DNA of 64,000 nucleotides, taken from assembly GCA_943353165.1 (NCBI GenBank), contig CALRAM010000002.1:1716-65715 (forward strand), given 5' to 3'. Below the pieces are notes generated by a model. That model did no database searches. It was not told where the DNA came from and saw only the letters and a list, made by a program, of their open reading frames with translations. This document shows positions 1,911 through 40,279 of the stretch, piece by piece; the first letter of the stretch is position 1; every line of letters begins with the position of its first letter. The stretch is from an uncultured Candidatus Saccharimonas sp. (lineage in GTDB: Bacteria; Patescibacteriota; Saccharimonadia; Saccharimonadales; OMJO01). A program made the position numbers and the translations under genes.

Positions 1911-2431
1911 GCTACTGGTACGGCTGACCCTAGAGGTATCTGTTTGCCTTGCAAGGGGTCGTTGACGACTATTTTGGAGTTGGTTACTTCTGTAATCTGC
2001 GAACGATCTATGCTCAGCTGACCACCGCTAAAACTTTTTAGGACAGACTGGCCTACATATATTTTTTGGATATACATGCTAGAAATATCGACAGCGTAAT
2101 CTGTGACTTTGCCCAGACGCTTTTTGTCGGTTGTGTGGACTGCTTTGTCTATGACTACAAAGTTTAGCTCCATGACGCTTTTTAGTCGTATTAGGTCTTT
2201 TGGGTCGGTCAAAACGTCGTGGTCGTTAACTATAAAGCCCAGATTGCTTTGTTCGCGGATGTCTTGGACTAGCAGCACCAGCTTGTCCCTGCTGATGCTG
2301 TCGGCACAGTAGAACCCCTCTATTTTCAGGTTGTTTGGGTCGATAATAGGAGTCAAAACTTTTGCTACTGGGGCACCGGTACGCAGACTCATAACCGATA
2401 TATTTTTGAATGAATTGCTAAGCTTTAACAT
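1907..2431 (-). CDS. PRC-barrel domain protein
   Basis: 174 aa with two PRC-barrel-like halves (VMSLRTGAPVAKV...IDPNNLKIEGFY and GKVTDYAVDISSMYIQKIYV). Its 3' end overlaps the recX stop convergently by 4 nt. Confidence 0.6.
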   Translation of the reverse strand: MLKLSNSFKNISVMSLRTGAPVAKVLTPIIDPNNLKIEGFYCADSISRDKLVLLVQDIREQSNLGFIVNDHDVLTDPKDLIRLKSVMELNFVVIDKAVHTTDKKRLGKVTDYAVDISSMYIQKIYVGQSVLKSFSGGQLSIDRSQITEVTNSKIVVNDPLQGKQIPLGSAVPVA

Positions 2432-2499
2432 GACTGTAAATAGTATAACCTAAATAATCCTGTGTATAACTTATGGCACTAGTATTTTGGGGATGTACA

Positions 2500-4713
2500 A
2501 TGACTACCAAGATGAAGTACAGTCGGCTTTTCACTGGGGTGGTGATGGCAATGTTACTTTTGGTGCCAGCAAGCGCGTCTGCCGTCGCTGTTTGTAGCCT
2601 ATGTATTGTAGAGGTTCAGTCTCAGGGCATAAATAGTGCGGCCGAAGACTATATTGTCGTAGCCAATAACACTAGTGTTCCATATGACACCACAGGCGTT
2701 GCATTAAAATATTACACTGCAGCCGGCAACAATACGACGTCTAGGAACATAGCATTGTCCGGCAGCTTGCCCGCTAGGTCGTCAATGGTTTTTGTTTCTG
2801 CAGGTTTGGCGACTGCCAATCCGACTGCTAGGCAGTTTCCCTCTGGTCTGGCGCTTTACGACGCCGGAGGTTCGTTAGAGCTCGTAACAGGCAGCACTAT
2901 AATGGATAGGGTCAGTTGGGGAGTAGTTACGGATCCTTTGCGAAGTGCAACACCTGGGCCTGTCCACAGCAAAGGTGCTTCGCTGACCAGAAAACACAGC
3001 GCTCTAGGGTTTTTGGATTCGGACAATAGTAGTGCCGATTTTGAGGCTGTCTGGCACGCATGTAGCGGATTGTCTATAAACGAAATTCAACCCTTTGCCG
3101 TAGGCCTGGAAGGCGAAGATATTTTGCCAGGACTGGAGTTGGTAAAATATAGCAACGCAGTCCTAGACATTGACTGCCCCATTCTGATAAACGGGGTCAA
3201 ATATTTTGTGGCAGCCGGAGATTTGCAGGCGACACCTTCAATAATTATCATAAATAATGTGCTGGACAATCTGGGCGACGTTTTGGACTTGTCTTTGTTG
3301 GTTGATGCTCCGAACACTGTGCAGTTAATCTCTGGTAGTTTTTACGGCGATCTGGCCTTGCCTATAACTAGCACTCTGACTTTGCAGCCTGTTTTGTCCG
3401 ACGGTCAAACCTATGCGTTTTTTGTCAGCAGCTGGAAGCCCACCTATAGCCCAACGCTCGGTTCGAGCAACAAATTATCTACTGTTTTGGTGTTGCCTAC
3501 AGACCCACCACCTACTGTGCCACCAGACGCATGTACAGATGTAAAGCTCAACGAAATGTTGCCAAATCCTACTGGAGATGACACTGGAAACGAGTGGATT
3601 GAGCTGATAGGTCTGACTGACAAGCCTAGCTTTTTAGGTGACTGCGGGGTACAGGTAATTACACCTACGACCACAACTACATACGCTTTTGGGCCAGACC
3701 AGTTCATAGACGCCAATGGTTTGGATTCTTTTACAGAGTTCAGTGACGGTGTAAGTATGCGAACATTAACTCTGAGAAACAGCGATACAAATACAATTAG
3801 CTTTGGGCGCATAGAGAACGATCAGTTTGTGCCGATACAAACAGTGCAGTACAAAGACGCACCAGAAGGTCAGAGCTGGGCGCGTTTTTCTGATGGCTGG
3901 AAGTGGGTCGCCAACCCTACCAAAAACTTGTCAAATACTACCCAGACAACAGAGGATGAAGATCCGTCGCCTACAGAGTTCCCTGCGCCACCACCACCAG
4001 TATCTCCGCCGCCTACAGTACTGCCAGCTTCACCGATAAGTATCGTGGAGTTGTTGCCCAACCCAGCGTCGCCCCAAACAGACGAAGCTGACGAGTATTT
4101 GGAGTTGTTTAATCCAACAAATGTAGCCGTAGATTTGACAGGCTACAAAGTTCAGACAGGCTACACATATAGTTATAGTGTGACTCTGCAAAACCAGACC
4201 ATACCAGCCAATGGCTATCTGGTTATAAAGAGTGGAAACACCAGTCTGTCTCTGGCGAATGCCGGTGGTCAGGCTCATTTGCTAGACCCTGCAGGAAATA
4301 TTATTAGCACGACAGATGTCTACACCGATGCACCGGAAGGGCAGGCGTGGGCTCTGGTGGACGACGTCTGGAAGTGGACAGGTTCTCCGACCGTTGGCGC
4401 TACTAACATTTATAGCGATCCTGTATTAACGGCAGTCACTACCAAAGCATCCAAGGCCACAAAAGCTACAAAAGCAGTAAAGGCTGTGTCTACCAAAAAA
4501 CCTGCTACTGCTGGTAATGTTAGCGAACAAAATGGCAGGGAGTTACCGAATGAACCAGCGCCATTGCACTTTGGGGTGCTTGCAGGAGTTGGTGCTCTTG
4601 CAGTAGGATATGCAGTATATGAGTACAGAAAAGACTTGGCAAACAGAATCTACCAGTTCAGACGCTACCGAAAAGCTCGCCGGGCAACTAGGTCACAATC
4701 TACGGGGCGGTGA
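2500..4713 (+). CDS. Surface-anchored lamin-tail-domain (LTD) repeat protein
   Basis: Has an N-terminal signal/TM segment (LFTGVVMAMLLLVPASASA). Repeated LTD signatures are present (NEMLPNPTGDDTGNEWIELIG, VELLPNPASPQTDEADEYLELFNPT). Pro-rich linkers, a KA-rich stalk and a C-terminal TM plus basic tail follow. The track ORF begins at 2473, but the ATG at 2500 has a GGGGA SD 7 nt upstream. Confidence 0.8.
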   Translation: MTTKMKYSRLFTGVVMAMLLLVPASASAVAVCSLCIVEVQSQGINSAAEDYIVVANNTSVPYDTTGVALKYYTAAGNNTTSRNIALSGSLPARSSMVFVSAGLATANPTARQFPSGLALYDAGGSLELVTGSTIMDRVSWGVVTDPLRSATPGPVHSKGASLTRKHSALGFLDSDNSSADFEAVWHACSGLSINEIQPFAVGLEGEDILPGLELVKYSNAVLDIDCPILINGVKYFVAAGDLQATPSIIIINNVLDNLGDVLDLSLLVDAPNTVQLISGSFYGDLALPITSTLTLQPVLSDGQTYAFFVSSWKPTYSPTLGSSNKLSTVLVLPTDPPPTVPPDACTDVKLNEMLPNPTGDDTGNEWIELIGLTDKPSFLGDCGVQVITPTTTTTYAFGPDQFIDANGLDSFTEFSDGVSMRTLTLRNSDTNTISFGRIENDQFVPIQTVQYKDAPEGQSWARFSDGWKWVANPTKNLSNTTQTTEDEDPSPTEFPAPPPPVSPPPTVLPASPISIVELLPNPASPQTDEADEYLELFNPTNVAVDLTGYKVQTGYTYSYSVTLQNQTIPANGYLVIKSGNTSLSLANAGGQAHLLDPAGNIISTTDVYTDAPEGQAWALVDDVWKWTGSPTVGATNIYSDPVLTAVTTKASKATKATKAVKAVSTKKPATAGNVSEQNGRELPNEPAPLHFGVLAGVGALAVGYAVYEYRKDLANRIYQFRRYRKARRATRSQSTGR

Positions 4714-11633: not shown

Positions 11634-13154
11634 TTACAAATCGTGAGTTACTGTGATTTTTGCGCCTAGGCTGTTTAATCTATCTGCCAGATCTTCGTAT
11701 CCACGGTTGATGGTGTAGACATTGCGTAGTACGGAAGTCCCTGACGCAGCCAGCATACCAATCAGCAACATCACGGCCGGTCGGATGCCACTAGGGCAGG
11801 TAACATCGGCTGATTTCCAACGGGTTGGTCCATTTATATAGACACGGTGCGGGTCGGCTAGCTCCAGGTCTACGCCTATCTTTTTTATTTCTGTAAACAT
11901 CAGCGCTCTATCTTCGTATATCCAGTCGTGTATCAGCGTCCGACCTTTTGCGACCGCACAAATAGGCACAAAATACGGTAGATGGTCAATGTTTAATCCT
12001 GGATAAACACTGGGGTGGAGCTTTTCTTTTGGGGCTATTAGTTGGTGGTGTTTGTGGATTTTTAGGTCCACCAGGTCGGTTTTGCCGTTGTTTGCCTTGT
12101 AGATAGGAGATGCGTCGTATCTGAGTCCCATTTTTTCTAGTTTTAGTAGCTCTAATTCCATAAAATCTATTGGCACACGTCGTATGGTAATAGCCGAATT
12201 GGTGGTTATGGCTGCTGCCACAAAGGTCATGGCTTCTACTGGGTCCTCGCTGGGATAATAAATGACATTTTTCTTTATGTTTTTGACCCCCTGGACTACA
12301 AGAGTAGAAGTTCCAATGCCGTCAATTTTTACGCCTAGCTTTTGTAGAAAAAAACAGATGTCTTGGACCATATAGTTGGCGCTGGCCATCTTTATGGTAG
12401 TTGTGCCGTCTATGCACGCAGCTGCCATCAGGATATTTTCTGTGGTGGTATCGCCAGATTCATACAGAACTATCGGTCTTTTGGCGGGGCGGGCTTTGAC
12501 GGATACATTGTAGTGTCCGCTTTTTGTGCTAACATTTACACCTAATTCTTCCAGAGCGTACAGATGGGGCAAAACGGTTCGTTTTCCTAGTTTGCAACCA
12601 CCTGCATAGGGGATTTGGAACTCTTTGAAATAATGCATAAGTGGACCCAGCAGCATAATTACACTGCGTGTTCGGCGAGCGGCTTCTTTGTTCATCTTTG
12701 CCAGATTGATAGTGGCGGGCGGCTTTATCTCTAGGTCGTTTCCGTTCATCCAGCGTATTTTTACACCTATACTTTCCAATACTTCTATAATTCTGTTTAC
12801 TTCTTCTATGCGGGCAACATTTAGCAGTTTGGTGGTGCCACGGTTTAGTAACGATGCGCAAAGCAAGGCCACGGCCGCGTTTTTGCTGGTTTTTATGGAT
12901 ATCTCTCCCCGAAGTTCGTGCCCTCCTTCTATCTGCAAGTTAATCGTAGAGCTCTCTCCGATACTAATTATTGTTTTGTTTAGTACCTCGCTGATACGAC
13001 CCAGAGTTTCCAGCGACAGATTTTGTTTGCCGTGTTCTATGCGGTTGACTGCCGACTGACTGGTGTGCATTCGGCGAGCAAACTCGGCCTGAGTCATATT
13101 GCGTTCTTGTCGTATCTGAGTTATTAATCGACCTATTTTTTCGTTTGTTTTCAT
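11634..13154 (-). CDS. murA: XRE-family HTH domain fused to UDP-N-acetylglucosamine 1-carboxyvinyltransferase (MurA)
   Basis: Residues 1-66 form an XRE HTH (IRQERNMTQAEFARRMHTSQSAVNRIEHGKQNLSLETL). The rest is a full-length MurA (KNAAVALLCASLL; active-site loop PYAGGCKLGKRTVLPH retains the Cys). The ATG at 13154 gives MKTNEK; the track ORF extends to 13190. Confidence 0.85.
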   Translation of the reverse strand: MKTNEKIGRLITQIRQERNMTQAEFARRMHTSQSAVNRIEHGKQNLSLETLGRISEVLNKTIISIGESSTINLQIEGGHELRGEISIKTSKNAAVALLCASLLNRGTTKLLNVARIEEVNRIIEVLESIGVKIRWMNGNDLEIKPPATINLAKMNKEAARRTRSVIMLLGPLMHYFKEFQIPYAGGCKLGKRTVLPHLYALEELGVNVSTKSGHYNVSVKARPAKRPIVLYESGDTTTENILMAAACIDGTTTIKMASANYMVQDICFFLQKLGVKIDGIGTSTLVVQGVKNIKKNVIYYPSEDPVEAMTFVAAAITTNSAITIRRVPIDFMELELLKLEKMGLRYDASPIYKANNGKTDLVDLKIHKHHQLIAPKEKLHPSVYPGLNIDHLPYFVPICAVAKGRTLIHDWIYEDRALMFTEIKKIGVDLELADPHRVYINGPTRWKSADVTCPSGIRPAVMLLIGMLAASGTSVLRNVYTINRGYEDLADRLNSLGAKITVTHDL

Positions 13155-32211: not shown

Positions 32212-32506
32212 CCCCCAATTCAAAACATTGGGTGCTGGGCAAGAATTGAAGCAGGTAATCTAGAGGACTGACCTCTAATCCTTGACCTCTAATCCCCCGA
32301 TTAATGTTATGTACGCTGTTTTCGTGCTTGAGTAGACAAGCTAGCGTTACCCGCTCTTGGCGGGTAAAATGGGCTTAGTGCATATGCGCCTCCTTAGTAT
32401 GATTTAGTTGTTACAAACCATATTGTACTGATGGAGAACGTATATGTCCCTTTATGATTCTGGTCTTAGGTGTCGCAGTTTATGGGTAGAATGGAGGGGA
32501 ATAAAA

Positions 32507-32535
32507 TTGACATTTAATGAATAATGTAATAAAAT
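32507..32535 (+). promoter_or_regulatory. Sigma70-like promoter for the SerRS-type operon
   Basis: TTGACA (32507-32512), 17-nt spacer, TAAAAT (32530-32535). It lies about 30 nt upstream of the GAGG SD and the ATG at 32567. Confidence 0.5.
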
Positions 32536-32566
32536 ATTATTATATAAAGATACGTTGAGGTATGTA

Positions 32567-33844
32567 ATGCATGATTTACGCGGGTTATTTGAAGTAGACG
32601 AAGCTCAGTTCGAGACACTGCAAGGTGAGTTTGCGAAACGTGGCGCAGAGCTGACTGTTGAAGATCAGGAAGACCACTTCGCTATTAGCGAGCTAAAGGC
32701 AGGTATCGAAGATACAAACTGGCGTAAAAACGTAATAAGTTTGTCATTTCAAGATGCAAGCAAAGAGGAGCGAGCTGAGTTGGTAAAGCAAGCCGCTCAA
32801 CTAGGCGAACGTAGACAAGAATTGACGGAGCTGCTGTCGACTCGACAAACCAGGTTCATGCATAGAATGATGTTGCTGCCAAACTTTTCGGCTAGTCATG
32901 TTCCACCAGGTGAAAGTGAGGAAGATAATGTTACTATTTCTGAACATCTCTTAGATCGAATTCATAATGGTCCTGATACACCGGATCATCTTGAAATCGG
33001 TACTAGGCTTGGTATTATTGACAACAAGCGCGCAGCAGTATTATCCGGCTCAAAATTTAGTTTACTGAGAGGTAATGGAGCGACCCTAAAAAGGGCGTTA
33101 CTCAACCTAATGCTTGATCGTGCCACTGAATTAGGATACGAAGAAACAGATGTGCCGTTCTTGGTCCGTCCTGAGATGATGCAGGGGACTGGACAGTTGC
33201 CTAAGTTTGAGGGCGATATGTTTCGGACTGAAAGCAATGAAGGCAATCCGCTGTACCTTATACCGACAACAGAGGTGCCTCTAACAAATATGCTCCGTGA
33301 CCATACCTTTACCGAAGACGAACTAAGCGTTAAGTTAACCGGCTCGTCAGAGAATTTTCGTCGTGAGGCAGGTAGGGCCGGAGCAGACACAAAGGGGCTG
33401 ATCCGAAACCATCAGTTTCCTAAAGTTGAATTAGTACGCATCGCACATCCAGATACATCATGGGATGACTATAGTGAAATGATCGAAGAATCTAGTGGAC
33501 TACTTGAGATGTTAGGTCTCCCATTCCGCACTATAGAACTATGCGACGGTGATCTAGGGATTGCCGCTCATTCTACGCGAGATTTAGAGGTGTGGCTGCC
33601 AAGTCGCAATGGCTGGCTTGAGGTTTCTAGCGTCAGTAACACTGGAGAGTTCCAGGCTCGTCGAATGGGCATGAAATACAAAGACGGACAAGGTAAACGA
33701 AGTTACGTACATACGTTAAATGGAACTTCAGTAGCGGTTGGCAGGACTATTGCCGCGATACTAGAAAATGGTCTACAAGCCGACGGCAGCGTTGAGATTC
33801 CCGAAGTTTTGCACGATTACACTAAATTTGACGTAATAGGATAA
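32567..33844 (+). CDS. Seryl-tRNA synthetase-type class II aaRS (full length, diverged)
   Basis: LIPTTEVPLTN, FRREAGRAGADTKGLIRNHQFPKVE (motif 2), GDLGIAAHSTRDLEVWLP, EFQARR and HTLNGTSVAVGRTIAAILEN (motif 3), plus an N-terminal coiled-coil arm. Several usually conserved residues differ (SENFRRE for SPCFRSE, SSVSNTGE for SSCSNCED). The track ORF starts at TTG 32555. Confidence 0.8.
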   Translation: MHDLRGLFEVDEAQFETLQGEFAKRGAELTVEDQEDHFAISELKAGIEDTNWRKNVISLSFQDASKEERAELVKQAAQLGERRQELTELLSTRQTRFMHRMMLLPNFSASHVPPGESEEDNVTISEHLLDRIHNGPDTPDHLEIGTRLGIIDNKRAAVLSGSKFSLLRGNGATLKRALLNLMLDRATELGYEETDVPFLVRPEMMQGTGQLPKFEGDMFRTESNEGNPLYLIPTTEVPLTNMLRDHTFTEDELSVKLTGSSENFRREAGRAGADTKGLIRNHQFPKVELVRIAHPDTSWDDYSEMIEESSGLLEMLGLPFRTIELCDGDLGIAAHSTRDLEVWLPSRNGWLEVSSVSNTGEFQARRMGMKYKDGQGKRSYVHTLNGTSVAVGRTIAAILENGLQADGSVEIPEVLHDYTKFDVIG

Positions 33845-33859
33845 ATTGAGCATAACGCT

Positions 33860-34522
33860 ATGGCAGAGATATTCATAGCAGGCGGTGGATCTAGCGAAGA
33901 GTCAAAAGATATTGATGTGTTGTTCCGATCAAGCGTTTTAGATCGTTCAGCGCAACCTTCATGTTTATATATTCCAAACGCAGCAGACACGGACGACTTT
34001 AGTCCCATGCGTAAATGGTTTAACGAAACATATCCGTTTTTTTCAGAAATCATCACACCGGAAGATTTCATAAAAAGTGATACGATAGATTCAATAAGCG
34101 ATACGATAGATTCAATATATATTGGAGGTGGTTATAATAGGACACTTATGAACTTTTTTGCTTCGAGGGGCATTGATGCATCTTTCTTTCTAAGATTCTT
34201 GTCAAAGGACGTTACGCTGTATGGTGGAAGCGCTGGGGCAGTTGTCCTTGGTGAATCGTTGTTGACAGGACGTGAAATTATGCGTGAACCTGAAAAGTAT
34301 AAGGATCTAGAAAAGACAGGGTTTAATATGTGTGGAGGTTATAGCTTTTGTCCACATTATGACGAAAGTAATCAATCAGCTATCCAGGCATTGGCACAAA
34401 AAGAGCAGTTGAATATTGTTCGACTTCATGACAGGGCAGGCTTGGTGTTTGACAATGGGAATATTATTAACACTGTTAATGTTAGACAGGAAGACATTGT
34501 TATGGGGAGGAAGAATGGCTAG
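33860..34522 (+). CDS. Peptidase S51 (PepE/cyanophycinase-like) family protein, paralog 1
   Basis: CLYIP, IYIGGGYN, LYGGSAGAVVLG (Ser nucleophile context) and CPHYD (His). Contains an in-frame 21-nt tandem duplication (DTIDSIS DTIDSI). Confidence 0.7.
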   Translation: MAEIFIAGGGSSEESKDIDVLFRSSVLDRSAQPSCLYIPNAADTDDFSPMRKWFNETYPFFSEIITPEDFIKSDTIDSISDTIDSIYIGGGYNRTLMNFFASRGIDASFFLRFLSKDVTLYGGSAGAVVLGESLLTGREIMREPEKYKDLEKTGFNMCGGYSFCPHYDESNQSAIQALAQKEQLNIVRLHDRAGLVFDNGNIINTVNVRQEDIVMGRKNG

Positions 34523-35501
34523 GGATAATTCACTAATAGAATACAGCCAAAGAATTGCAGAGAGCAGTTACGCTGAGGAATACATAGAACTATTGCATGA
34601 AATAAGTGATATCTACGATGATCCGTCATTTTTGAACGCAGAGCCAGTAGTACGTGCCCAAGGGACGACTTTGTACACAACCTCAGGCGTACAGGCCTAC
34701 ACTGAATTGTTCGAACAGCAGGCAATGAACGAACATAGTGCCGGATTATTCTCGCAGCCAGTCATTCGCATCAATCATCTGGATGGCGTGGCACTTGGCT
34801 CGTACGTATCATTCATTAACTTTGGCGCGATGCAAACAGGTGTAAGCGCAGAAAGGCATGCCGAGATTGATGATGCATATTTTGAGGTATTGAAAGCAGC
34901 CAATGATCAGAAAGTAGAGCGCGGCGATATTTCAGAATTTGAAAAAGATGTTGGCAATGTTCGCTATGAAACAACTCAACGAAATTATTTCGTTGATAAT
35001 CTTGATGTTGGAGACGTATTATTCCATAGAATTATTGTACCTAAAATGGGGAGTCTAGCACTTTCTGAGGTAGGAGGTGGTTTTGAAAGGTATTTCTTTG
35101 GTCGTAGCGGCAGCATAATTGAAGAGTCGACAGGTATACCTACGACAGCAGATAATGTTCGTTTTCTTGACACTATCCGAACAGCTGTACTTATGGTCGC
35201 GAACGGCGTAACCGGTTCAAATAATAATCATGGCTATCAATTTAGAAAAGTCGCCAAACGCATGCTGGCCGAAGATTGTTTTGACGATGGTATTGTTGAA
35301 TATGCATTTGAACATACCTTTAACTATTGGCAGAATCAGCGTGGTACTAGCATTGACGTAAGAGATGCGAAAAGCTTGTTAATGGCTGAGGTTTGGCGAC
35401 ACATTAATATTGCTTCGCTAAAATCTGTCGGCCGTTCAGCAAAAAGCAGTACTCAAATTTCATTGCCTCCAAATGATTTTAAAGAAAAATACCAAGTTTA
35501 G
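34515..35501 (+). CDS. AlaRS catalytic-core-like protein (class IIc aaRS fold, no editing or C-Ala domains)
   Basis: Four colinear AlaRS-like motifs. TTLYTTSGVQAYTELF matches PTLLFTNAGMNQFKDVF. SQPVIR matches SQRCVR. SEVGGGFER matches VDTGMGLER. DTIRTAVLMVANGVTGSNNNHGYQFRKVAKR matches DHIR..FLIADGV.PSN.GRGYVLRRIIRR. The ATG at 34515 has a GGGGAGG SD and overlaps the S51 stop by 8 nt. The track ORF starts at 34416. Confidence 0.55.
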   Translation: MARDNSLIEYSQRIAESSYAEEYIELLHEISDIYDDPSFLNAEPVVRAQGTTLYTTSGVQAYTELFEQQAMNEHSAGLFSQPVIRINHLDGVALGSYVSFINFGAMQTGVSAERHAEIDDAYFEVLKAANDQKVERGDISEFEKDVGNVRYETTQRNYFVDNLDVGDVLFHRIIVPKMGSLALSEVGGGFERYFFGRSGSIIEESTGIPTTADNVRFLDTIRTAVLMVANGVTGSNNNHGYQFRKVAKRMLAEDCFDDGIVEYAFEHTFNYWQNQRGTSIDVRDAKSLLMAEVWRHINIASLKSVGRSAKSSTQISLPPNDFKEKYQV

Positions 35502-35503
35502 TT

Positions 35504-36127
35504 TCACTTTTTAAATACAGAAATTGTGCCGATATGTTTTTGGTATGAGTTGGTATAGATAACTCCGCCGTCTTCGGGTATGCAAATAATATTTGTCTTA
35601 TTATCGCTCATTAGAATATTGATCATACTAGTTGGAAAGTCGCGATGATTGTAGTGCGGTATTACTGAAAAACCATTGAGCATATCTAATCCTAAATTAA
35701 CCTGATGAGGCCACTCATTTCTGGGGGCAGTGCGTATAGTCTTTCCTAGGATTATAGCACCAGCGCTACCGCCATATAATACACAACCTTTTTCTAATTG
35801 TTCACGTATGAATACATGAATATTATGCTGTTTTATTACATCCAGTAGATGTCCCGTATTACCTCCGCCAATATAGACTGTGTCGTATAACTGCTCAAGA
35901 AGTGATGCGTCTGGGTTGTGTTCATCAAACACACTTACTGAAGATATATATTTATAGTTTTTCGTGAACCATTCGCAAGCTGTACTGTAGTCTTTTAGAG
36001 CAAGAGCAGTGGGGATGTAGAGGCATTTAATGTCGCCTTTAGGTAAAAGCTTCTTGTATTCAGCGTCGAGTCTTCGAGATTGATGCTCGTCTCCACCACC
36101 TCCAAGTATGATTACGCCATCCATCAT
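35504..36127 (-). CDS. Peptidase S51 family protein, paralog 2
   Basis: CLYIP, VYIGGGNTGHLL, LYGGSAGAIILG and IPHYN motifs. Starts 2 nt after the stop of the SAM synthetase gene. Confidence 0.7.
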   Translation of the reverse strand: MMDGVIILGGGGDEHQSRRLDAEYKKLLPKGDIKCLYIPTALALKDYSTACEWFTKNYKYISSVSVFDEHNPDASLLEQLYDTVYIGGGNTGHLLDVIKQHNIHVFIREQLEKGCVLYGGSAGAIILGKTIRTAPRNEWPHQVNLGLDMLNGFSVIPHYNHRDFPTSMINILMSDNKTNIICIPEDGGVIYTNSYQKHIGTISVFKK

Positions 36128-36129
36128 TG

Positions 36130-37380
36130 CTAATGGTTGACGAGGTTACCGGCAATAAATTCATCAGTAATCTCAGGAATTTTTAAAAGCTCCTCTTCCA
36201 CGATCTGTTTAACGGTATTAGCATCCGCTTCGGTCGTTATACGGGTGTGCCAAGGTTTTAAGAGCATGCCTCCATTCTGTGAGACTATTTCAACGATATT
36301 AGAAAACCCTGTTTCATCATAAATACGTTTGGCGATTTTCTTGGTGCAGACCGCGTATATAAAACCTGCGTAGTATCGAGGATTTTTTCCGTTAGTGCCT
36401 TCCATCGACATCGGTTTCCTTGAGGTTATTAGTCCATTGGTCCGATTTCCGCGACCGACTACGCCAATATCTCCCGAAAGAGACGCTCCGCTTACTGTTA
36501 AATAGAAGTTTTGTGTTTCGTATTTGTCTTTTGTGTTAGTTGATATATTTACTTTATAGTCAGGAAGCTCATTCTCACAAAATACGTGCATTTCTGATGT
36601 AATCATATCAAGGTTTTTCTTGTAAGCTTCATAATCTGGCACATAGGCTGCAATTTGAGGTATACAAGCGGTAATGTCAACATTTATACCCTCCCTATAA
36701 GCCATAACTTTTATATCGGTGCCTAGCCATTTGTTTTCTTTACGTTTTTTATCGCTGGTAAGGTGTCGTTCAAGCTTAATCACAGTTGATTCAAGTGGGC
36801 TAAGTGGTTCATATGCAACACAGAACGATGTGTCATTGGCCACGACGTCTTCATAGCCCCGTACAGATGTTTTTTCTACGGGACTAAACATGTTGGCGAT
36901 TGAGCCTTTGCTTTCTTTGAGTGTGCCAGGTCCAGCATAAGATGTAAGAAGATCAATAATTTTTACTGTATCGTCAAACTCAATCATTGGGAATTTAGCA
37001 GCGAAGTAACTGCGTAAAACATCCTCGATTAAATCTTCAACTGGTAGTTTTTTACCCAAGAAGCTGCGAGAGATGCGACCAGAAAGTACGATTATAATGG
37101 GTTCAACAAATTTTCCTTTGCCGAACGCGACTTCTGTTTTTCCGCCAATCATCATAAGTTTATCGATTTGATGGTGTAATACCATACCGTCGCAATGTTC
37201 AGTCGTGTAGGCGGAATATTTTTGCGAAATTAATGACGATAATTCATCACAGATTGAGTCAGGATGTCCGGCACCTTTCCGTTCAATTAACTCACTGTCT
37301 ATATCGAGCATAGGATTTGTACTAACTACATCAATTTTTCCTGCTTTTACAGATTTTTGACCTATCTTATAACTTCCCAT
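36130..37380 (-). CDS. Archaeal-type S-adenosylmethionine synthetase (methionine adenosyltransferase)
   Basis: ERKGAGHPDSICDE and GASLSGDIGVVGRGNRTNGLITSRKPMSMEGTNGKNP match the archaeal MAT family signature rather than bacterial MetK. Starts 2 nt after the radical-SAM stop. Confidence 0.85.
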   Translation of the reverse strand: MGSYKIGQKSVKAGKIDVVSTNPMLDIDSELIERKGAGHPDSICDELSSLISQKYSAYTTEHCDGMVLHHQIDKLMMIGGKTEVAFGKGKFVEPIIIVLSGRISRSFLGKKLPVEDLIEDVLRSYFAAKFPMIEFDDTVKIIDLLTSYAGPGTLKESKGSIANMFSPVEKTSVRGYEDVVANDTSFCVAYEPLSPLESTVIKLERHLTSDKKRKENKWLGTDIKVMAYREGINVDITACIPQIAAYVPDYEAYKKNLDMITSEMHVFCENELPDYKVNISTNTKDKYETQNFYLTVSGASLSGDIGVVGRGNRTNGLITSRKPMSMEGTNGKNPRYYAGFIYAVCTKKIAKRIYDETGFSNIVEIVSQNGGMLLKPWHTRITTEADANTVKQIVEEELLKIPEITDEFIAGNLVNH

Positions 37381-37382
37381 AC

Positions 37383-38489
37383 TTAATCTCTCTTACTTTT
37401 ATCTTTAATAAAAACTTGCGTTGTTTGAATTATCTCGCCTCGCAGACCCATAATCCTTGCATTAATTGTTCTGTCGGTGTGATTGCAATCTGTGCATTTT
37501 ACTCCTTCTAGTAATTTATCTCTAGAATGTTTGGACGACTCCCATAGACTCCTAAATGAACCATTATTCGCTTCAAGCGAACCAAAAAGTTCACCGTTTG
37601 GATCATCTGGCTGAGAGGCTAGGCAGCACGAAAACACCTCTCCGTAGGGGTTTAGGGCAATTTTGAAATAGGGTACTATGCAGGGATTGCCTGTAATCCG
37701 AGTTAGTTCTTCGTTGGTGCGAATAACGAGTGCATCACCATATATATTTGTGAGGCTGTTCAGTACTTCCTGTAACTCAGCTATCTGCGAATCATCAGGT
37801 TTAATAATGCCATATATATCCTGCTTATAGACTAAACGGTCAATGCCTAAGCTACCAAGTAGATAATTTGCTGTTTTCTGGACGCTTTCAGGGTTGCTAT
37901 TGATCCTACCTAGAATTGCTGTGGCATTTATCTGTAATCGAGGATCAGTAGCTGATTCACGAACATCGACTATCCTACGCATATTTGCAAGAGTCTTCGA
38001 TACTGCTGGATTATCTTCGTGCAGCCCTCTTATCCGATTGTATTCTTGCTGGTTGGTCGTATCTATACTAAATCTTAGCTCATCAATATCTAACAGATAC
38101 TGATCAACTTCCTCGGGTATTTGATTACCGTGAGTTATTAGGCGAGTTCTCATAGTTCGGCTACCAAGATTTGAAAGTAGTCTATCGATTCCCTTATATA
38201 AAAAGGGCTCACCGCCACCCGATACTGATATTTCTTGGACGCCCATTTCTTCGGCCTCGTCAAACAGATCGGAATATTGATCGACGGAGAGCATTTCGTT
38301 TCGCCGAGTCGCGTCATTTCCTACGCCGCCATGGAAGCAATAAGAACAACGATGATTGCAAAGATCTGTCGGATGCACCTCCACTACAATCGGGGCAGGA
38401 TCCTGGCCTAGATCACGTGCAGACAAAACAGATTCAATCGCATCGATCTGCAGCTGTTCGTGTGGGGTAAAAGTGTTCGTAACAGGCAT
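37383..38489 (-). CDS. Radical SAM enzyme (function unknown)
   Basis: CNHRCSYC (CxxxCxxC) cluster motif, SVSGGGEPFLY (GGE motif), and additional C-terminal Cys residues (FSCCLA, KCTDCNH). Confidence 0.85.
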   Translation of the reverse strand: MPVTNTFTPHEQLQIDAIESVLSARDLGQDPAPIVVEVHPTDLCNHRCSYCFHGGVGNDATRRNEMLSVDQYSDLFDEAEEMGVQEISVSGGGEPFLYKGIDRLLSNLGSRTMRTRLITHGNQIPEEVDQYLLDIDELRFSIDTTNQQEYNRIRGLHEDNPAVSKTLANMRRIVDVRESATDPRLQINATAILGRINSNPESVQKTANYLLGSLGIDRLVYKQDIYGIIKPDDSQIAELQEVLNSLTNIYGDALVIRTNEELTRITGNPCIVPYFKIALNPYGEVFSCCLASQPDDPNGELFGSLEANNGSFRSLWESSKHSRDKLLEGVKCTDCNHTDRTINARIMGLRGEIIQTTQVFIKDKSKRD

Positions 38490-38853
38490 TAGTATATTTT
38501 ACACTCCTTTTGTAATGTAAGCAAAAGCGTGATCACCAGAGTGGGAGGTAGTTCCTATTGGGTAGAATACGTGAGTTGACCTTTTTCATTTAAAGGAACC
38601 TAGAGGTCCGTCCTCTATAGGTGTTATTATCGAAAAGTTTGGGAATAGACGAATTGTTTAAATATTTAGGTGGATGGCTGTGAATTATGGGAGCAGTTTG
38701 TAGAATTTATTTATACTAGAGGCCGTTATCCATTTGTTGTCTCCGTGTGCGCCACCACCATCTAGGCGCAGCATTATCCCAATGTCAAGAAATGAATTAG
38801 TTCGATAAAAGCATAAGGGTATTGAAAACATACCATAAATGTTGTCTAGGTTA

Positions 38854-38923: not shown

Positions 38924-40279
38924 ATGAATTTATTTAAAAAGTTTGCCATCCGTGGATTGATAGCTGGAGCATTTATAGCTGCTTCTGTAGCCGTCGGTAC
39001 TATAGTTTTTAGCCCAAAGCATACAAATGCTGTAAACGGCTATGATTGTGACAGCAATGCTGTCATATACTGTGGTGCTCGCTCCGTTCCAGAACTGATA
39101 ACAAAATACGACAATTACGGTTCTGCTGGTCATATTTATAACGACCTTCATAACGTTTATAGTGCTTTTGGCATATCTAGTGATGGTGTTCACAGACTAG
39201 CCAATAATGTGGTTATAGGGCAAGTTCATTCAGACGGTACTGTCTGGATTGGCTCTAAGATGATAGGTCAAAACGCCCTGACAGCCGGTCGCCAAAACAA
39301 GCCTGGTAGTTTTGCCGTTCCTGGCACAGGAGTATTCGCTAGACCACCCAGCGTATCGTTCGATAGTGGTAGCTTGGACGCCTATATAGGTTTTGAAGAC
39401 GGCAAACCTGCCTGGGCTATATTGGCTGCCTGTGGTAACCCAGTCAGCTGGGACCGCCCAACCGTTACTATAGCCAAACAAGTCAAAGACCCAAAGACAG
39501 GGGTTATGGCCGAAAATGCTACTTTCCAAAACGGAGACCACATTCGCTACACTTTGGACGTAGGCAACACTGGTCGTGCAACTGCTAACAATGTTATCGT
39601 ACGCGACTTTTTGCCTGTGGGTCAGACATACGATGTGAACAGTACCAGCGTAGATGGTAGATTTTTTGGAAATGGCGTAGCAGGTAATGGCATAAATATC
39701 GGATCGTTGGCGGTGGGAGCGGTAGTCAAAGTGTCCTTTACTGCGACAGTCAGTCTGCCAGAAACAAATTGTAGCACTACTCGTATGACAAATATTGGTG
39801 CAGTTATACCGGACAATGGTCCGTCTGCTACAGACACGGCCAATACGGATATTGTGGTCAGCTGTGCATCGCAATGTACTCTGTTGAGCGCGCCGACTTA
39901 TGCTATAAAATTGGGCGATAAATTGGTCTTTACTGCTGTAGCTAGTGTAAAAGGTCTGAGTATTTCTGACTACAGCTTCAAGCTAAACACCAAATCGGTA
40001 CAAAGTGGCATGGGCAATACCTACGAGTTTGTTCCTACAGAAACCGGGGAATACACGGTCAGCGTGTTGGTCAAGTTTTCTGACGGCAAAACAGATGGCG
40101 ATAGTGGCGCGTGTGCCAAAATAGTAAAAGTCTACAAAGACGAAATACCTCCAACCCCTCCAACCCCGATACTGCCAAACACTGGCGCGGGCGACATAGT
40201 GGGAATATTTGTAGCCACATCATTTGTAGGTGCGATAGCCCACAAACTTTATATGGCACGCAAGTTTGCGCGTTTGTAA
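38924..40279 (+). CDS. LPXTG-anchored surface protein with DUF11-type repeat domain
   Basis: Signal peptide, a DUF11-like segment (YTLDVGNTGRATANNVIVRDFLP), and a C-terminal sorting signal LPNTGAG followed by a hydrophobic stretch and ARKFARL. Confidence 0.8.
   Translation: MNLFKKFAIRGLIAGAFIAASVAVGTIVFSPKHTNAVNGYDCDSNAVIYCGARSVPELITKYDNYGSAGHIYNDLHNVYSAFGISSDGVHRLANNVVIGQVHSDGTVWIGSKMIGQNALTAGRQNKPGSFAVPGTGVFARPPSVSFDSGSLDAYIGFEDGKPAWAILAACGNPVSWDRPTVTIAKQVKDPKTGVMAENATFQNGDHIRYTLDVGNTGRATANNVIVRDFLPVGQTYDVNSTSVDGRFFGNGVAGNGINIGSLAVGAVVKVSFTATVSLPETNCSTTRMTNIGAVIPDNGPSATDTANTDIVVSCASQCTLLSAPTYAIKLGDKLVFTAVASVKGLSISDYSFKLNTKSVQSGMGNTYEFVPTETGEYTVSVLVKFSDGKTDGDSGACAKIVKVYKDEIPPTPPTPILPNTGAGDIVGIFVATSFVGAIAHKLYMARKFARL

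Follow-up and report, generated by a model that had tools for sequence, protein, structure and literature searches.

A six-gene block of an uncultured Candidatus Saccharimonas sp. is one version of a conserved module that most likely builds or processes an aminoacylated adenosine-type compound

Two convergent operons of an uncultured Candidatus Saccharimonas sp. (GCA_943353165.1, contig CALRAM010000002.1) bring together a seryl-tRNA synthetase (SerRS), a protein resembling the catalytic core of alanyl-tRNA synthetase (AlaRS), an archaeal-type methionine adenosyltransferase (MAT), a radical S-adenosylmethionine (SAM) enzyme and two S51-family serine hydrolases. The question raised by this locus is whether the six genes form a system or are neighbors by chance. 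They lie at positions 32,507 to 38,489 of a 64,000-nt stretch of the contig, which was analyzed as a whole and is referred to below as the window. The plus-strand operon consists of SerRS (32567-33844, 425 aa), the hydrolase S51a (33860-34522, 220 aa) and the truncated AlaRS-like protein (34515-35501, 328 aa), and the minus-strand genes are S51b (35504-36127, 207 aa), MAT (36130-37380, 416 aa) and the radical-SAM enzyme (37383-38489, 368 aa). The analysis shows that the block represents, in lineage-specific form, a conserved and dedicated module with a specialized MAT and the AlaRS-like protein as its deep core. S51 hydrolases and SerRS are frequent partners, and the radical-SAM enzyme is added in the version found in the window. 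Judged by analogy with characterized systems, a small aminoacylated compound of the adenosine type is most likely made or processed by the module.

Loci of four diverged Saccharibacteria-type lineages (L009, L015, L018 and L021 in the numbering used for our survey) carry genes for MAT, SerRS, S51a, AlaRS-like and S51b between flanks unrelated to those of the window. L009, with the sole close homologue of the AlaRS-like protein (42% identity) and completely different flanks, has the order S51b(-), SerRS, S51a, AlaRS-like, MAT(-), radical SAM(-). In L015, L018 and L021, again with different flanks, the order is MAT, SerRS, S51a, AlaRS-like, S51b(-), with no radical-SAM gene. Distant AlaRS-like homologues (24-31% identity; L026, L028, L029 and L114) likewise adjoin genes for archaeal-type MAT, S51, SerRS and radical-SAM proteins, and some of these genes are fused. 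L026 and L027 have radical SAM, MAT, an AlaRS-like::S51 fusion (P0250, found in two independent metagenomes), prolyl-tRNA synthetase (ProRS), a diverged ProRS-like paralogue, a methyltransferase, an AsnA-like gene and S66. L114 has MAT(-) and radical SAM(-), followed by SerRS, a fusion of AlaRS-like with a family 1 glycosyltransferase (AlaRS-like::GT1, P0125) and His_Phos. L029 and L030 (P0128) have GT1(-) and S51(-), then MAT and AlaRS-like, and L028 (P0126) has methyltransferase, S66, AsnA-like, amidohydrolase, SerRS, AlaRS-like and HAD genes.

We also performed a survey anchored on MAT, in which 80 MAT loci from a metagenome scan were ranked by similarity to the window MAT and searched locally with hidden Markov models (HMMs). 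Among the 20 nearest loci, an AlaRS-like gene was present in 15, an S51 gene in 11 and either of the two in 17, while SerRS-type and radical-SAM genes were present in 8/20 and 4/20, respectively. Two of the three nearest loci with neither AlaRS-like nor S51 are contigs of about 2 kb. None of the 60 more distant MATs (0/60, with about half of the loci at least 8 kb long) had an AlaRS-like, S51 or SerRS neighbor. Because the same gene set occurs within different flanks, because some of its genes are fused and because of the difference between 17/20 and 0/60, we reject a chance grouping of housekeeping genes, which the original prediction had kept as its null hypothesis. Its claim that the aminoacyl-tRNA synthetase (aaRS) half of the block is linked to the SAM half is upheld by the same synteny, fusions and survey.

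The original prediction had also placed the system in an epibiotic bacterium of the candidate phyla radiation (CPR). That setting does not define the module, which is not CPR-specific: the G+C content (GC) of module-linked loci ranges from 0.30 to 0.68, and named members of the MAT subfamily come from Patescibacteria, Myxococcota, Chloroflexota, Bacteroidota, Woesearchaeota and Actinomycetota. Asked whether the neighborhood is conserved or patchy, we find that it recurs in unrelated settings, yet the AlaRS-like clade of the window is rare and patchy, being present in 2 of 185,579 GTDB species representatives. Other neighbors that recur are GT1, S66, amidohydrolase, methyltransferases, kinases and phosphatases; a carbamoyltransferase, PIG-L and a 2-deoxy-scyllo-inosose (DOI)-synthase-like::aminotransferase fusion are occasional. 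Such a variety of partners is what a diversifying small-molecule pathway would show. Two very different AlaRS-like loci (L026, 11497-16977, and L028, 2654-5591) both have a methyltransferase, an AsnA/AsnRS-core-like gene and S66 (the MccF family). As had been predicted, no system with this gene combination was found described in the searchable literature.

As a single sequence, the AlaRS-like protein gave only sub-threshold matches to AlaRS, and it falls far short of the alaS equivalog (25.5 bits versus 457), ending at 328 aa within the tRNA-recognition domain. A profile of its family matched the Archaeoglobus fulgidus AlaRS structures 2ztg and 3wqy (E 7e-15 and 1e-14) over the aminoacylation domain and into the first part of the tRNA-recognition domain. 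An AlphaFold2 model built with a 27-sequence alignment had a predicted local distance difference test (pLDDT) score of 90 and a predicted template modeling (pTM) score of 0.90, and its top Foldseek matches among Protein Data Bank (PDB) entries were AlaRS catalytic fragments (1riq, 3hxu, 9jc7 and 3wqy; E 4e-10 to 1e-9, TMq 0.56-0.64), followed by GlyRS-alpha. The profile and the model thus bear out the claim of a genuine AlaRS-core homologue, and we are confident that the predicted structure is the AlaRS class IIc aminoacylation fold plus a helical tRNA-recognition domain, without editing or C-Ala domains. An exhaustive HMMER search of 1.8 billion proteins returned 177 family representatives (50% clustering), mostly 330-420 aa long and 22-30% identical. 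The members that were looked up carried no informative name, only 'hypothetical protein', and all came from metagenome or Sequence Read Archive (SRA) assembly collections.

To map residues, we aligned 33 family sequences with Escherichia coli (Ec) AlaRS by MAFFT L-INS-i; the Ec reference sequence was accepted after a check against the fragments printed by HMMER. In Ec numbering, R69 (the motif-2 Arg), F90, G239 and R242 are invariant in the 33 sequences, E241 (which with G239 and R242 represents motif 3) is Glu in 32/33, and G237 is Gly in 31/33. Conserved residues of the tRNA domain are D285, R288, S301, N302, G306, Y307 and R310. By comparison, N212 is replaced by Asp or Glu in 30/33 members (D167 in the window protein), D235 is Glu in the window clade (E185), and W170 is lost in that clade (V146). 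Since the nucleotide-site and tRNA-domain residues are kept and N212, D235 and W170 are changed, the protein retains a nucleotide pocket and a tRNA-type domain within remodeled amino-acid and reaction-centre surroundings. Glu versus Asp at D235 was considered as a marker of SerRS linkage and rejected; Glu occurs with SerRS at 7 loci and Asp at 6, and the split is lineage-specific. Upstream of the cluster in L028, a 59-aa open reading frame (ORF; 2425-2604, minus strand) matches PF01411 (AlaRS) and is possibly a remnant of another AlaRS-like gene.

SerRS scored 400.4 bits against the TIGR00414 serS equivalog (cut-off 301.65) and is full-length, with residues 14-419 aligned to positions 10-418 of the 418 in the profile; the Pfam Seryl_tRNA_N domain is weak (19.7 versus 28.2). 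Only about nine close relatives were found (58-63% identity), the next matches being the SerRSs of Aquificota and Campylobacterota, and all four close relatives whose contexts we examined lie in the same module (4/4). Every module SerRS tested exceeded the serS cut-off. Because these enzymes are full-length and canonical, their product should be Ser-tRNA. The module SerRSs fall into at least two separate groups, and a single SerRS clade co-evolving with the module is therefore not supported; SerRS appears to have been recruited more than once. No second serS was found in the fetched DNA, which extends about 20 kb around each locus. At L050 (contig GC 0.60), two tRNA-Ser genes with GCT and TGA anticodons lie directly 3' of the module-linked SerRS (12805-13016), which hints that a module SerRS can be the housekeeping copy of its organism.

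The MAT matches the archaeal type (PF01941, 305.9 bits, gathering score 27; E 2e-57 to MjMAT, 7p82) and lies below the cut-offs of all NCBIfam MAT families (278 versus at least 435). The catalytic residues of TkMAT are His33, Tyr271, Asp201, Asp283, His62, Asn64 and Asn161 (PMC3853416); in the window MAT these are kept as H39, Y293, D222, D304, H69/H70 and N182, with Asn64 changed to Gln71. The kept residues include the catalytic His and the Tyr that stacks on adenine. The MATs of otherwise orthologous modules form two subclades that are 35-40% identical to each other. In type A (the window, L009, L026, L031, L033-L035 and L114), a radical-SAM gene always directly precedes MAT, whereas in type B (L015, L018, L021, L029 and others) it never does. 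At positions near-invariant in other archaeal-type MATs, the type-A consensus has N to Q71, D to I305, V to R335, H to Y337 and K to F340, so that GDDG reads GDIG and GKNPVNHVGK reads GKNPRYYAGF, and one conserved Glu is deleted. These substitutions are common to the MATs of the window, L009, L026, L031 and L033-L035; at most of the same positions, type B holds the archaeal-type residue. Such changes suggest altered handling of the substrate or of triphosphate in type A. As MAT subclades and SerRS groups of different origin occupy the same slots in the module, both activities are probably needed for its function.

Orthologues of the radical-SAM gene precede the type-A MAT in L009, L026, L031, L033-L036, L113 and L114. 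The window protein scores 55.2 bits against PF04055 (gathering score 29.5), with the CxxxCxxC motif CNHRCSYC, and its Cys-rich, SPASM/twitch-like C-terminal region scores 20.6 against SPASM, just under the gathering score of 21.5. Its nearest families, all far below their cut-offs, are the W-cofactor maturase, viperin and MoaA. The original prediction had counted this gene as a member of the cluster. That is true of the window and the other type-A versions; the gene is absent from 3/5 close module lineages and is not core, and together with MAT it forms a separable cassette. In Hyalangium rubrum (L031, 9000-21251; GCA_034259325.1), the radical-SAM/MAT pair is found without the rest of the module, among two ATP-grasp ligases, a kinase-like gene, a B12-radical-SAM gene, MbtH, a thioesterase and polyketide synthase/nonribosomal peptide synthetase (PKS/NRPS) genes. 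An Ardenticatenaceae metagenome-assembled genome (MAG; L113, 6087-11118; GCA_020634435.1) has an APH-like kinase, an AAA_28 (VakA-like) kinase, radical SAM, MAT and GT2. This set contains no AlaRS-like, S51 or SerRS gene and is flanked by two STAND-type NTPases and an integrase, a setting that looks like a defence island.

Both hydrolases match PF03575 Peptidase_S51 (58.4 bits for S51a and 91.5 bits for S51b; gathering score 23.9) and fail the PepE and cyanophycinase equivalog cut-offs. Their GGSAGA and PHY motifs align with 3l4e and 7c9b, so the nucleophile Ser and the His are kept, and S51b aligns to Lmo0363 (3l4e) and PepE (1fy2/7c9b). CLYIP, LYGGSAGA and PHY had been predicted as shared and do occur in both; the predicted shared IYIGGG is VYIGGG in one of them. 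Within the window the two are 28% identical (28-34% between the lineages 'a' and 'b'), compared with 38-54% among S51a orthologues and 37-49% among S51b orthologues, each of which is present in all five module lineages. They represent two old orthologous lineages that were both retained. In the Saccharibacteria MAG GCA_035329585.1 (L015, 14894-16772), a third, divergent S51-like gene lies a few kb downstream of the module together with a zeta-toxin/AAA_33 kinase-like gene and an alpha/beta-hydrolase.

Examination of the locus itself confirmed the positions predicted for the ORFs, their junctions and a promoter-like site, and the six family assignments stood as well, five by Pfam or TIGRFAM scores and the AlaRS-like one by profile and structure. 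For the same species, gene callers found identical ORFs in no fewer than 24 public contigs. The stop of S51a overlaps the start of the AlaRS-like gene by 8 nt (ATGGCTAG), with GGAGG just 5' of the overlap; 2 nt separate the convergent stop codons, and 2-nt spacers separate all three minus-strand genes. The GC and GC3 (GC at third codon positions) of all six genes are within about 1.3 standard deviations (SD) of the other window genes. The compositional deviation sought as a check was thus not seen, and composition offers no hint of recent transfer. Ahead of the plus-strand operon, TTGACA-17-TAAAAT (32507-32535, plus strand) is an 11/12 consensus match and the best-scoring site of its upstream gap; it is a consensus match only, and promoter-like sites are not enriched across the region (22 observed versus 17 +/- 4.3 in shuffles). 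The gaps flanking the block (about 343-355 and 434 nt) are long compared with the window median of 50 nt, as predicted, but they are not unique, since about nine gaps in the window are at least 340 nt.

Each flanking gap contains one copy of a 17-nt palindrome, TAGAGG-N5-CCTCTA (32261-32277 and 38601-38617), which has exactly 2 matches in the 64-kb window, a significant excess over the chance expectation of 0.10; a tandem TGACCTCTAATCC x2 at 32269-32295 overlaps with the left copy. As a module boundary or shared operator the palindrome was rejected, since it was found in same-species loci only and the right copy is absent in some strains. The long gaps gave no Rfam match at E <= 1 (no T-box and no SAM riboswitch), and the leader showed no folding advantage over its shuffles (z = -0.45). 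The block has housekeeping genes as its neighbors in the window. The product of the gene adjoining the module (38924-40279) has a CLIPPER domain, an LPNTG-type sortase signal and a membrane anchor at its C terminus and is likely displayed on the cell surface. Strains L002 and L003 have one more gene, pilin-like (N_methyl) and encoding 215 aa, between this gene and pyruvate kinase. The pyruvate kinase falls in a cluster (at least 90% identity) with a protein that NCBI attributes to a Saccharibacteria bacterium, in agreement with the host.

What chemistry might such a module carry out? We tentatively favor a seryl transfer from Ser-tRNA to SAM or a SAM-derived adenosyl compound, with the S51 proteins as de-aminoacylases, by analogy with AcmD, AcmF and AcmE of ascamycin biosynthesis in Streptomyces sp. 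80H647 (PMC12945691; Zheng et al., ACS Catal 2024). In this scheme MAT would supply SAM, an adenosine compound that bears an amine, or a close adenosyl-sulfonium analogue. The AlaRS-like protein, having lost tRNA charging, would hold an adenosine-type compound in its relic aminoacyl-adenylate pocket and bind the acceptor end of Ser-tRNA(Ser) made by the adjacent SerRS, and the seryl group would be passed to an amine of the bound compound to give a seryl-adenosyl small molecule. The radical-SAM enzyme would tailor the nucleoside moiety, and cleavage of the aminoacyl or dipeptide-like bond by the two S51 hydrolases would serve proofreading, maturation or self-protection. Minimal modules, which consist of MAT, AlaRS-like and S51 and in some cases SerRS, lack any classical SAM-using enzyme; therefore the AlaRS-like protein is the likeliest consumer of the MAT product. 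As an argument from chemistry, the acidic residue at N212 would accommodate a cationic sulfonium or ammonium group more readily than an acyl-phosphate.

Several observations weigh against seryl transfer. The motif-2 and motif-3 ATP-contacting arginines and F90 are kept throughout the AlaRS-like family, so adenylation of an amino acid by the protein itself is conceivable. From an AlaRS-type tRNA domain one would expect a preference for tRNA(Ala) over tRNA(Ser). Only about 15/24 AlaRS-like loci (many of these contigs are short) have SerRS, its place is taken by ProRS at two loci, and no dedicated tRNA gene accompanies the module consistently across 27 loci. Having lost near-invariant residues, the type-A MAT may make a product other than plain SAM. 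Finally, GT1, kinases and phosphatases are frequent partners and point to sugar or phospho chemistry, which this scheme does not explain.

The retained ATP site (R69, F90 and motif 3, with G239 and R242 invariant and E241 in 32/33) would suit a different arrangement, in which the locus is a producer-immunity cluster for a seryl-adenylate mimic. Here a tRNA-free AlaRS-like ligase would activate Ser, Ala or Gly with ATP, as MshC does its substrate, and ligate it to a SAM-derived adenosyl amine; the product, a stable analogue of an aminoacyl-adenylate, would inhibit SerRS, the module SerRS would be a resistant copy, and the S51 and S66 proteins would provide MccF-like immunity or Trojan-horse processing. 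It is also consistent with the recurrence of S66 peptidases at L026, L028 and L033, with the restriction of the window SerRS clade to module carriers, with the extra aaRS genes that albomycin and ascamycin clusters are generally known to carry, and with the accessory status of the MAT subfamily in Streptomyces, Hyalangium (where NRPS/PKS genes lie nearby) and Micromonosporaceae, all of which presumably carry a canonical MetK. Against this, Asp or Glu at N212 beside the reaction centre should disfavor an acyl-phosphate intermediate, judging from the residue map, and the tRNA-Ser pair after the module SerRS of L050 is what one expects of a housekeeping serS; on balance we consider this arrangement unlikely. 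Less probable again is that the product is an aminoacylated sugar or glycoconjugate, whether a small metabolite of the cytoplasm or part of the envelope, made by the logic of mycothiol and bacillithiol: GT1 or GT4 would form a glycoside, a deacetylase would free its amine, the aaRS-like protein would ligate an amino acid to it, and SAM would provide methyl or aminocarboxypropyl decorations. The CysRS paralogue MshC acts together with MshA (GT4) and MshB (PIG-L), and the counterparts in our loci are GT1 adjoining the module in L009, L029, L039, L040, L044, L045 and L047 and fused to AlaRS-like in P0125 (L114), a PIG-L deacetylase with a PHP phosphatase in L040, the DOI-synthase-like::aminotransferase fusion in L048, and an APH-like kinase with GT2 in L038. 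However, GT1 occurs in a minority of loci only, the window module has no glycosyltransferase or deacetylase, and this pathway explains neither the tight pairing of MAT with AlaRS-like nor the SerRS.

The tRNA-recognition domain with its conserved residues leads to another possibility, that the target is tRNA itself: the AlaRS-like protein would bind the acceptor stem for a SAM-dependent modification of tRNA or of its aminoacyl group, or S51 would deacylate mischarged tRNA. Confusion of Ser with Ala is the classic editing problem of AlaRS, SerRS is adjacent to the AlaRS-like gene, and in the P0250 fusion S51 occupies the position of the AlaRS editing domain. A function in translation quality control is nevertheless hard to reconcile with so rare and patchy a spread (177 representatives in 1.8 billion proteins; 2/185,579 species), with variable tailoring-type neighbors that look biosynthetic, and with a dedicated MAT, and we regard it as doubtful. 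An anti-phage role is very improbable. It would have the radical-SAM/MAT cassette make a viperin-like modified nucleotide that the rest of the module derivatizes or detoxifies, and it draws on matches of the radical-SAM N-terminal core to pVip models (59 bits) and viperin_w_prok (57 bits), on the VakA-like kinase with the Ardenticatenaceae cassette between STAND NTPases and an integrase, and on a similar kinase beside the cassette in Hyalangium. But the protein misses the viperin cut-off (NF038283, 57 versus 180), only the generic radical-SAM core aligns (positions 1-149 of 257 of the PADLOC pVip model), the other five proteins match no PADLOC model, most modules lack radical SAM, and the window neighbors are housekeeping genes. 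A known defence system is rejected, as PADLOC returned nothing beyond that generic match. The least probable account of all is the fortuitous one, a housekeeping serS and a metK-equivalent beside unrelated peptidase genes. A fully canonical SerRS, window-like composition and housekeeping flanks would fit it, and SerRS or MAT may indeed also serve housekeeping; the recurrence of the gene set between different flanks, associations that persist at 24-31% identity, the gene fusions and the survey speak against it.

Within the preferred seryl-transfer scheme, one specific form would have Ser-tRNA acylate the alpha-amine of SAM itself to give N-seryl-SAM, with SAM lying in the relic adenylate pocket of the AlaRS-like family, which would then be a new enzyme class. 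We give this form a small chance. N-seryl-SAM could lactonize, as in LuxI chemistry, to seryl-homoserine lactone and methylthioadenosine, with dipeptidase-like turnover by S51. If true, this would mean a new tRNA- and SAM-derived family of signals or antibiotics from Saccharibacteria and other uncultured bacteria.

Few aaRS paralogues are known to have been repurposed for small-molecule chemistry, and each (MshC, AcmF, SbzA and the cyclodipeptide synthases) gave new enzymology. Here the truncated AlaRS-like proteins make up a whole uncharacterized family (some 177 representatives, clustered at 50%) that is linked to a SAM-synthetase subfamily of its own and that our survey encountered in metagenome- or SRA-derived sequences only. 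Among the carriers are epibiotic Saccharibacteria, about whose chemistry towards hosts and competitors very little is known. With 5-6 genes the module is compact, and it offers natural variants with or without radical SAM, GT1, S66 or a methyltransferase, as well as informative natural fusions.

How does the module compare with known systems? Ascamycin, an analogy already drawn by the original prediction, proved apt, because AcmF is a truncated AlaRS-like enzyme consisting of the aminoacylation and tRNA-recognition domains only (PMC12945691). AcmF does not activate alanine and instead transfers the aminoacyl group of an aminoacyl-tRNA to an adenosine derivative that occupies what was the adenylate site; its Glu at the AlaRS D235 position is essential, and it carries N219Q and D232E and has lost most ATP residues (PMC12945691). 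Its partners are AcmD, a canonical aaRS encoded in the cluster, and AcmE, a hydrolase that reverses the reaction (PMC12945691). Compared by this published description, the window AlaRS-like protein is also truncated to two domains with Glu at the D235 position, the module has a canonical class-II aaRS (SerRS) and hydrolases (S51) as counterparts of AcmD and AcmE, and the acceptor would likewise be of the adenosine type if it is SAM. The differences are that the aaRS is SerRS rather than AlaRS, that the hydrolases are S51 proteins rather than a secreted alpha/beta-hydrolase, that sulfamate and halogenation genes are absent and MAT is a constant partner, that N212 is Asp or Glu in the module family and Gln in AcmF, that the ATP-contacting arginines are kept, and that the hosts are Saccharibacteria and other uncultured lineages.

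The albomycin and microcin C (MccB/D/E/F) systems share with the module an extra or cluster-linked SerRS, radical-SAM and SAM-dependent steps, and peptidases acting on aminoacyl-nucleotide analogues, and the S66 genes of three related loci (L026, L028 and L033) belong to the MccF family. Unlike them, the module has no siderophore, thionucleoside, MccB-type adenylyltransferase or precursor-peptide genes, and the window has S51 rather than S66; to our knowledge, neither system has an AlaRS-like protein or an archaeal-type MAT. The MshC/BshC-type ligases of mycothiol and bacillithiol are similar in that an aaRS paralogue serves as a small-molecule amino-acid ligase, and GT1/GT4 are recurrent and PIG-L occasional neighbors in module loci; MshC, however, is a class-I CysRS paralogue, those pathways lack MAT, S51 and SerRS, and the window lacks a glycosyltransferase or deacetylase. 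Prokaryotic viperins resemble the window radical-SAM enzyme, which is weakly closest to viperin and MoaA, and L113 adds a kinase neighbor in a defence-island setting, but the enzyme scores below the viperin cut-off, its C-terminal half is unrelated, and the window-type radical-SAM genes are always paired with MAT whereas viperins are not. LuxI-type acyl-homoserine lactone synthases acylate the SAM alpha-amine with a carrier-activated acyl group. The likeness there would be one of mechanism only, entirely hypothetical, with tRNA as the carrier and no relationship of sequence or fold. Taking these comparisons together, the module is best filed as a putative, undescribed variant of small-molecule biosynthesis based on aaRS paralogues.

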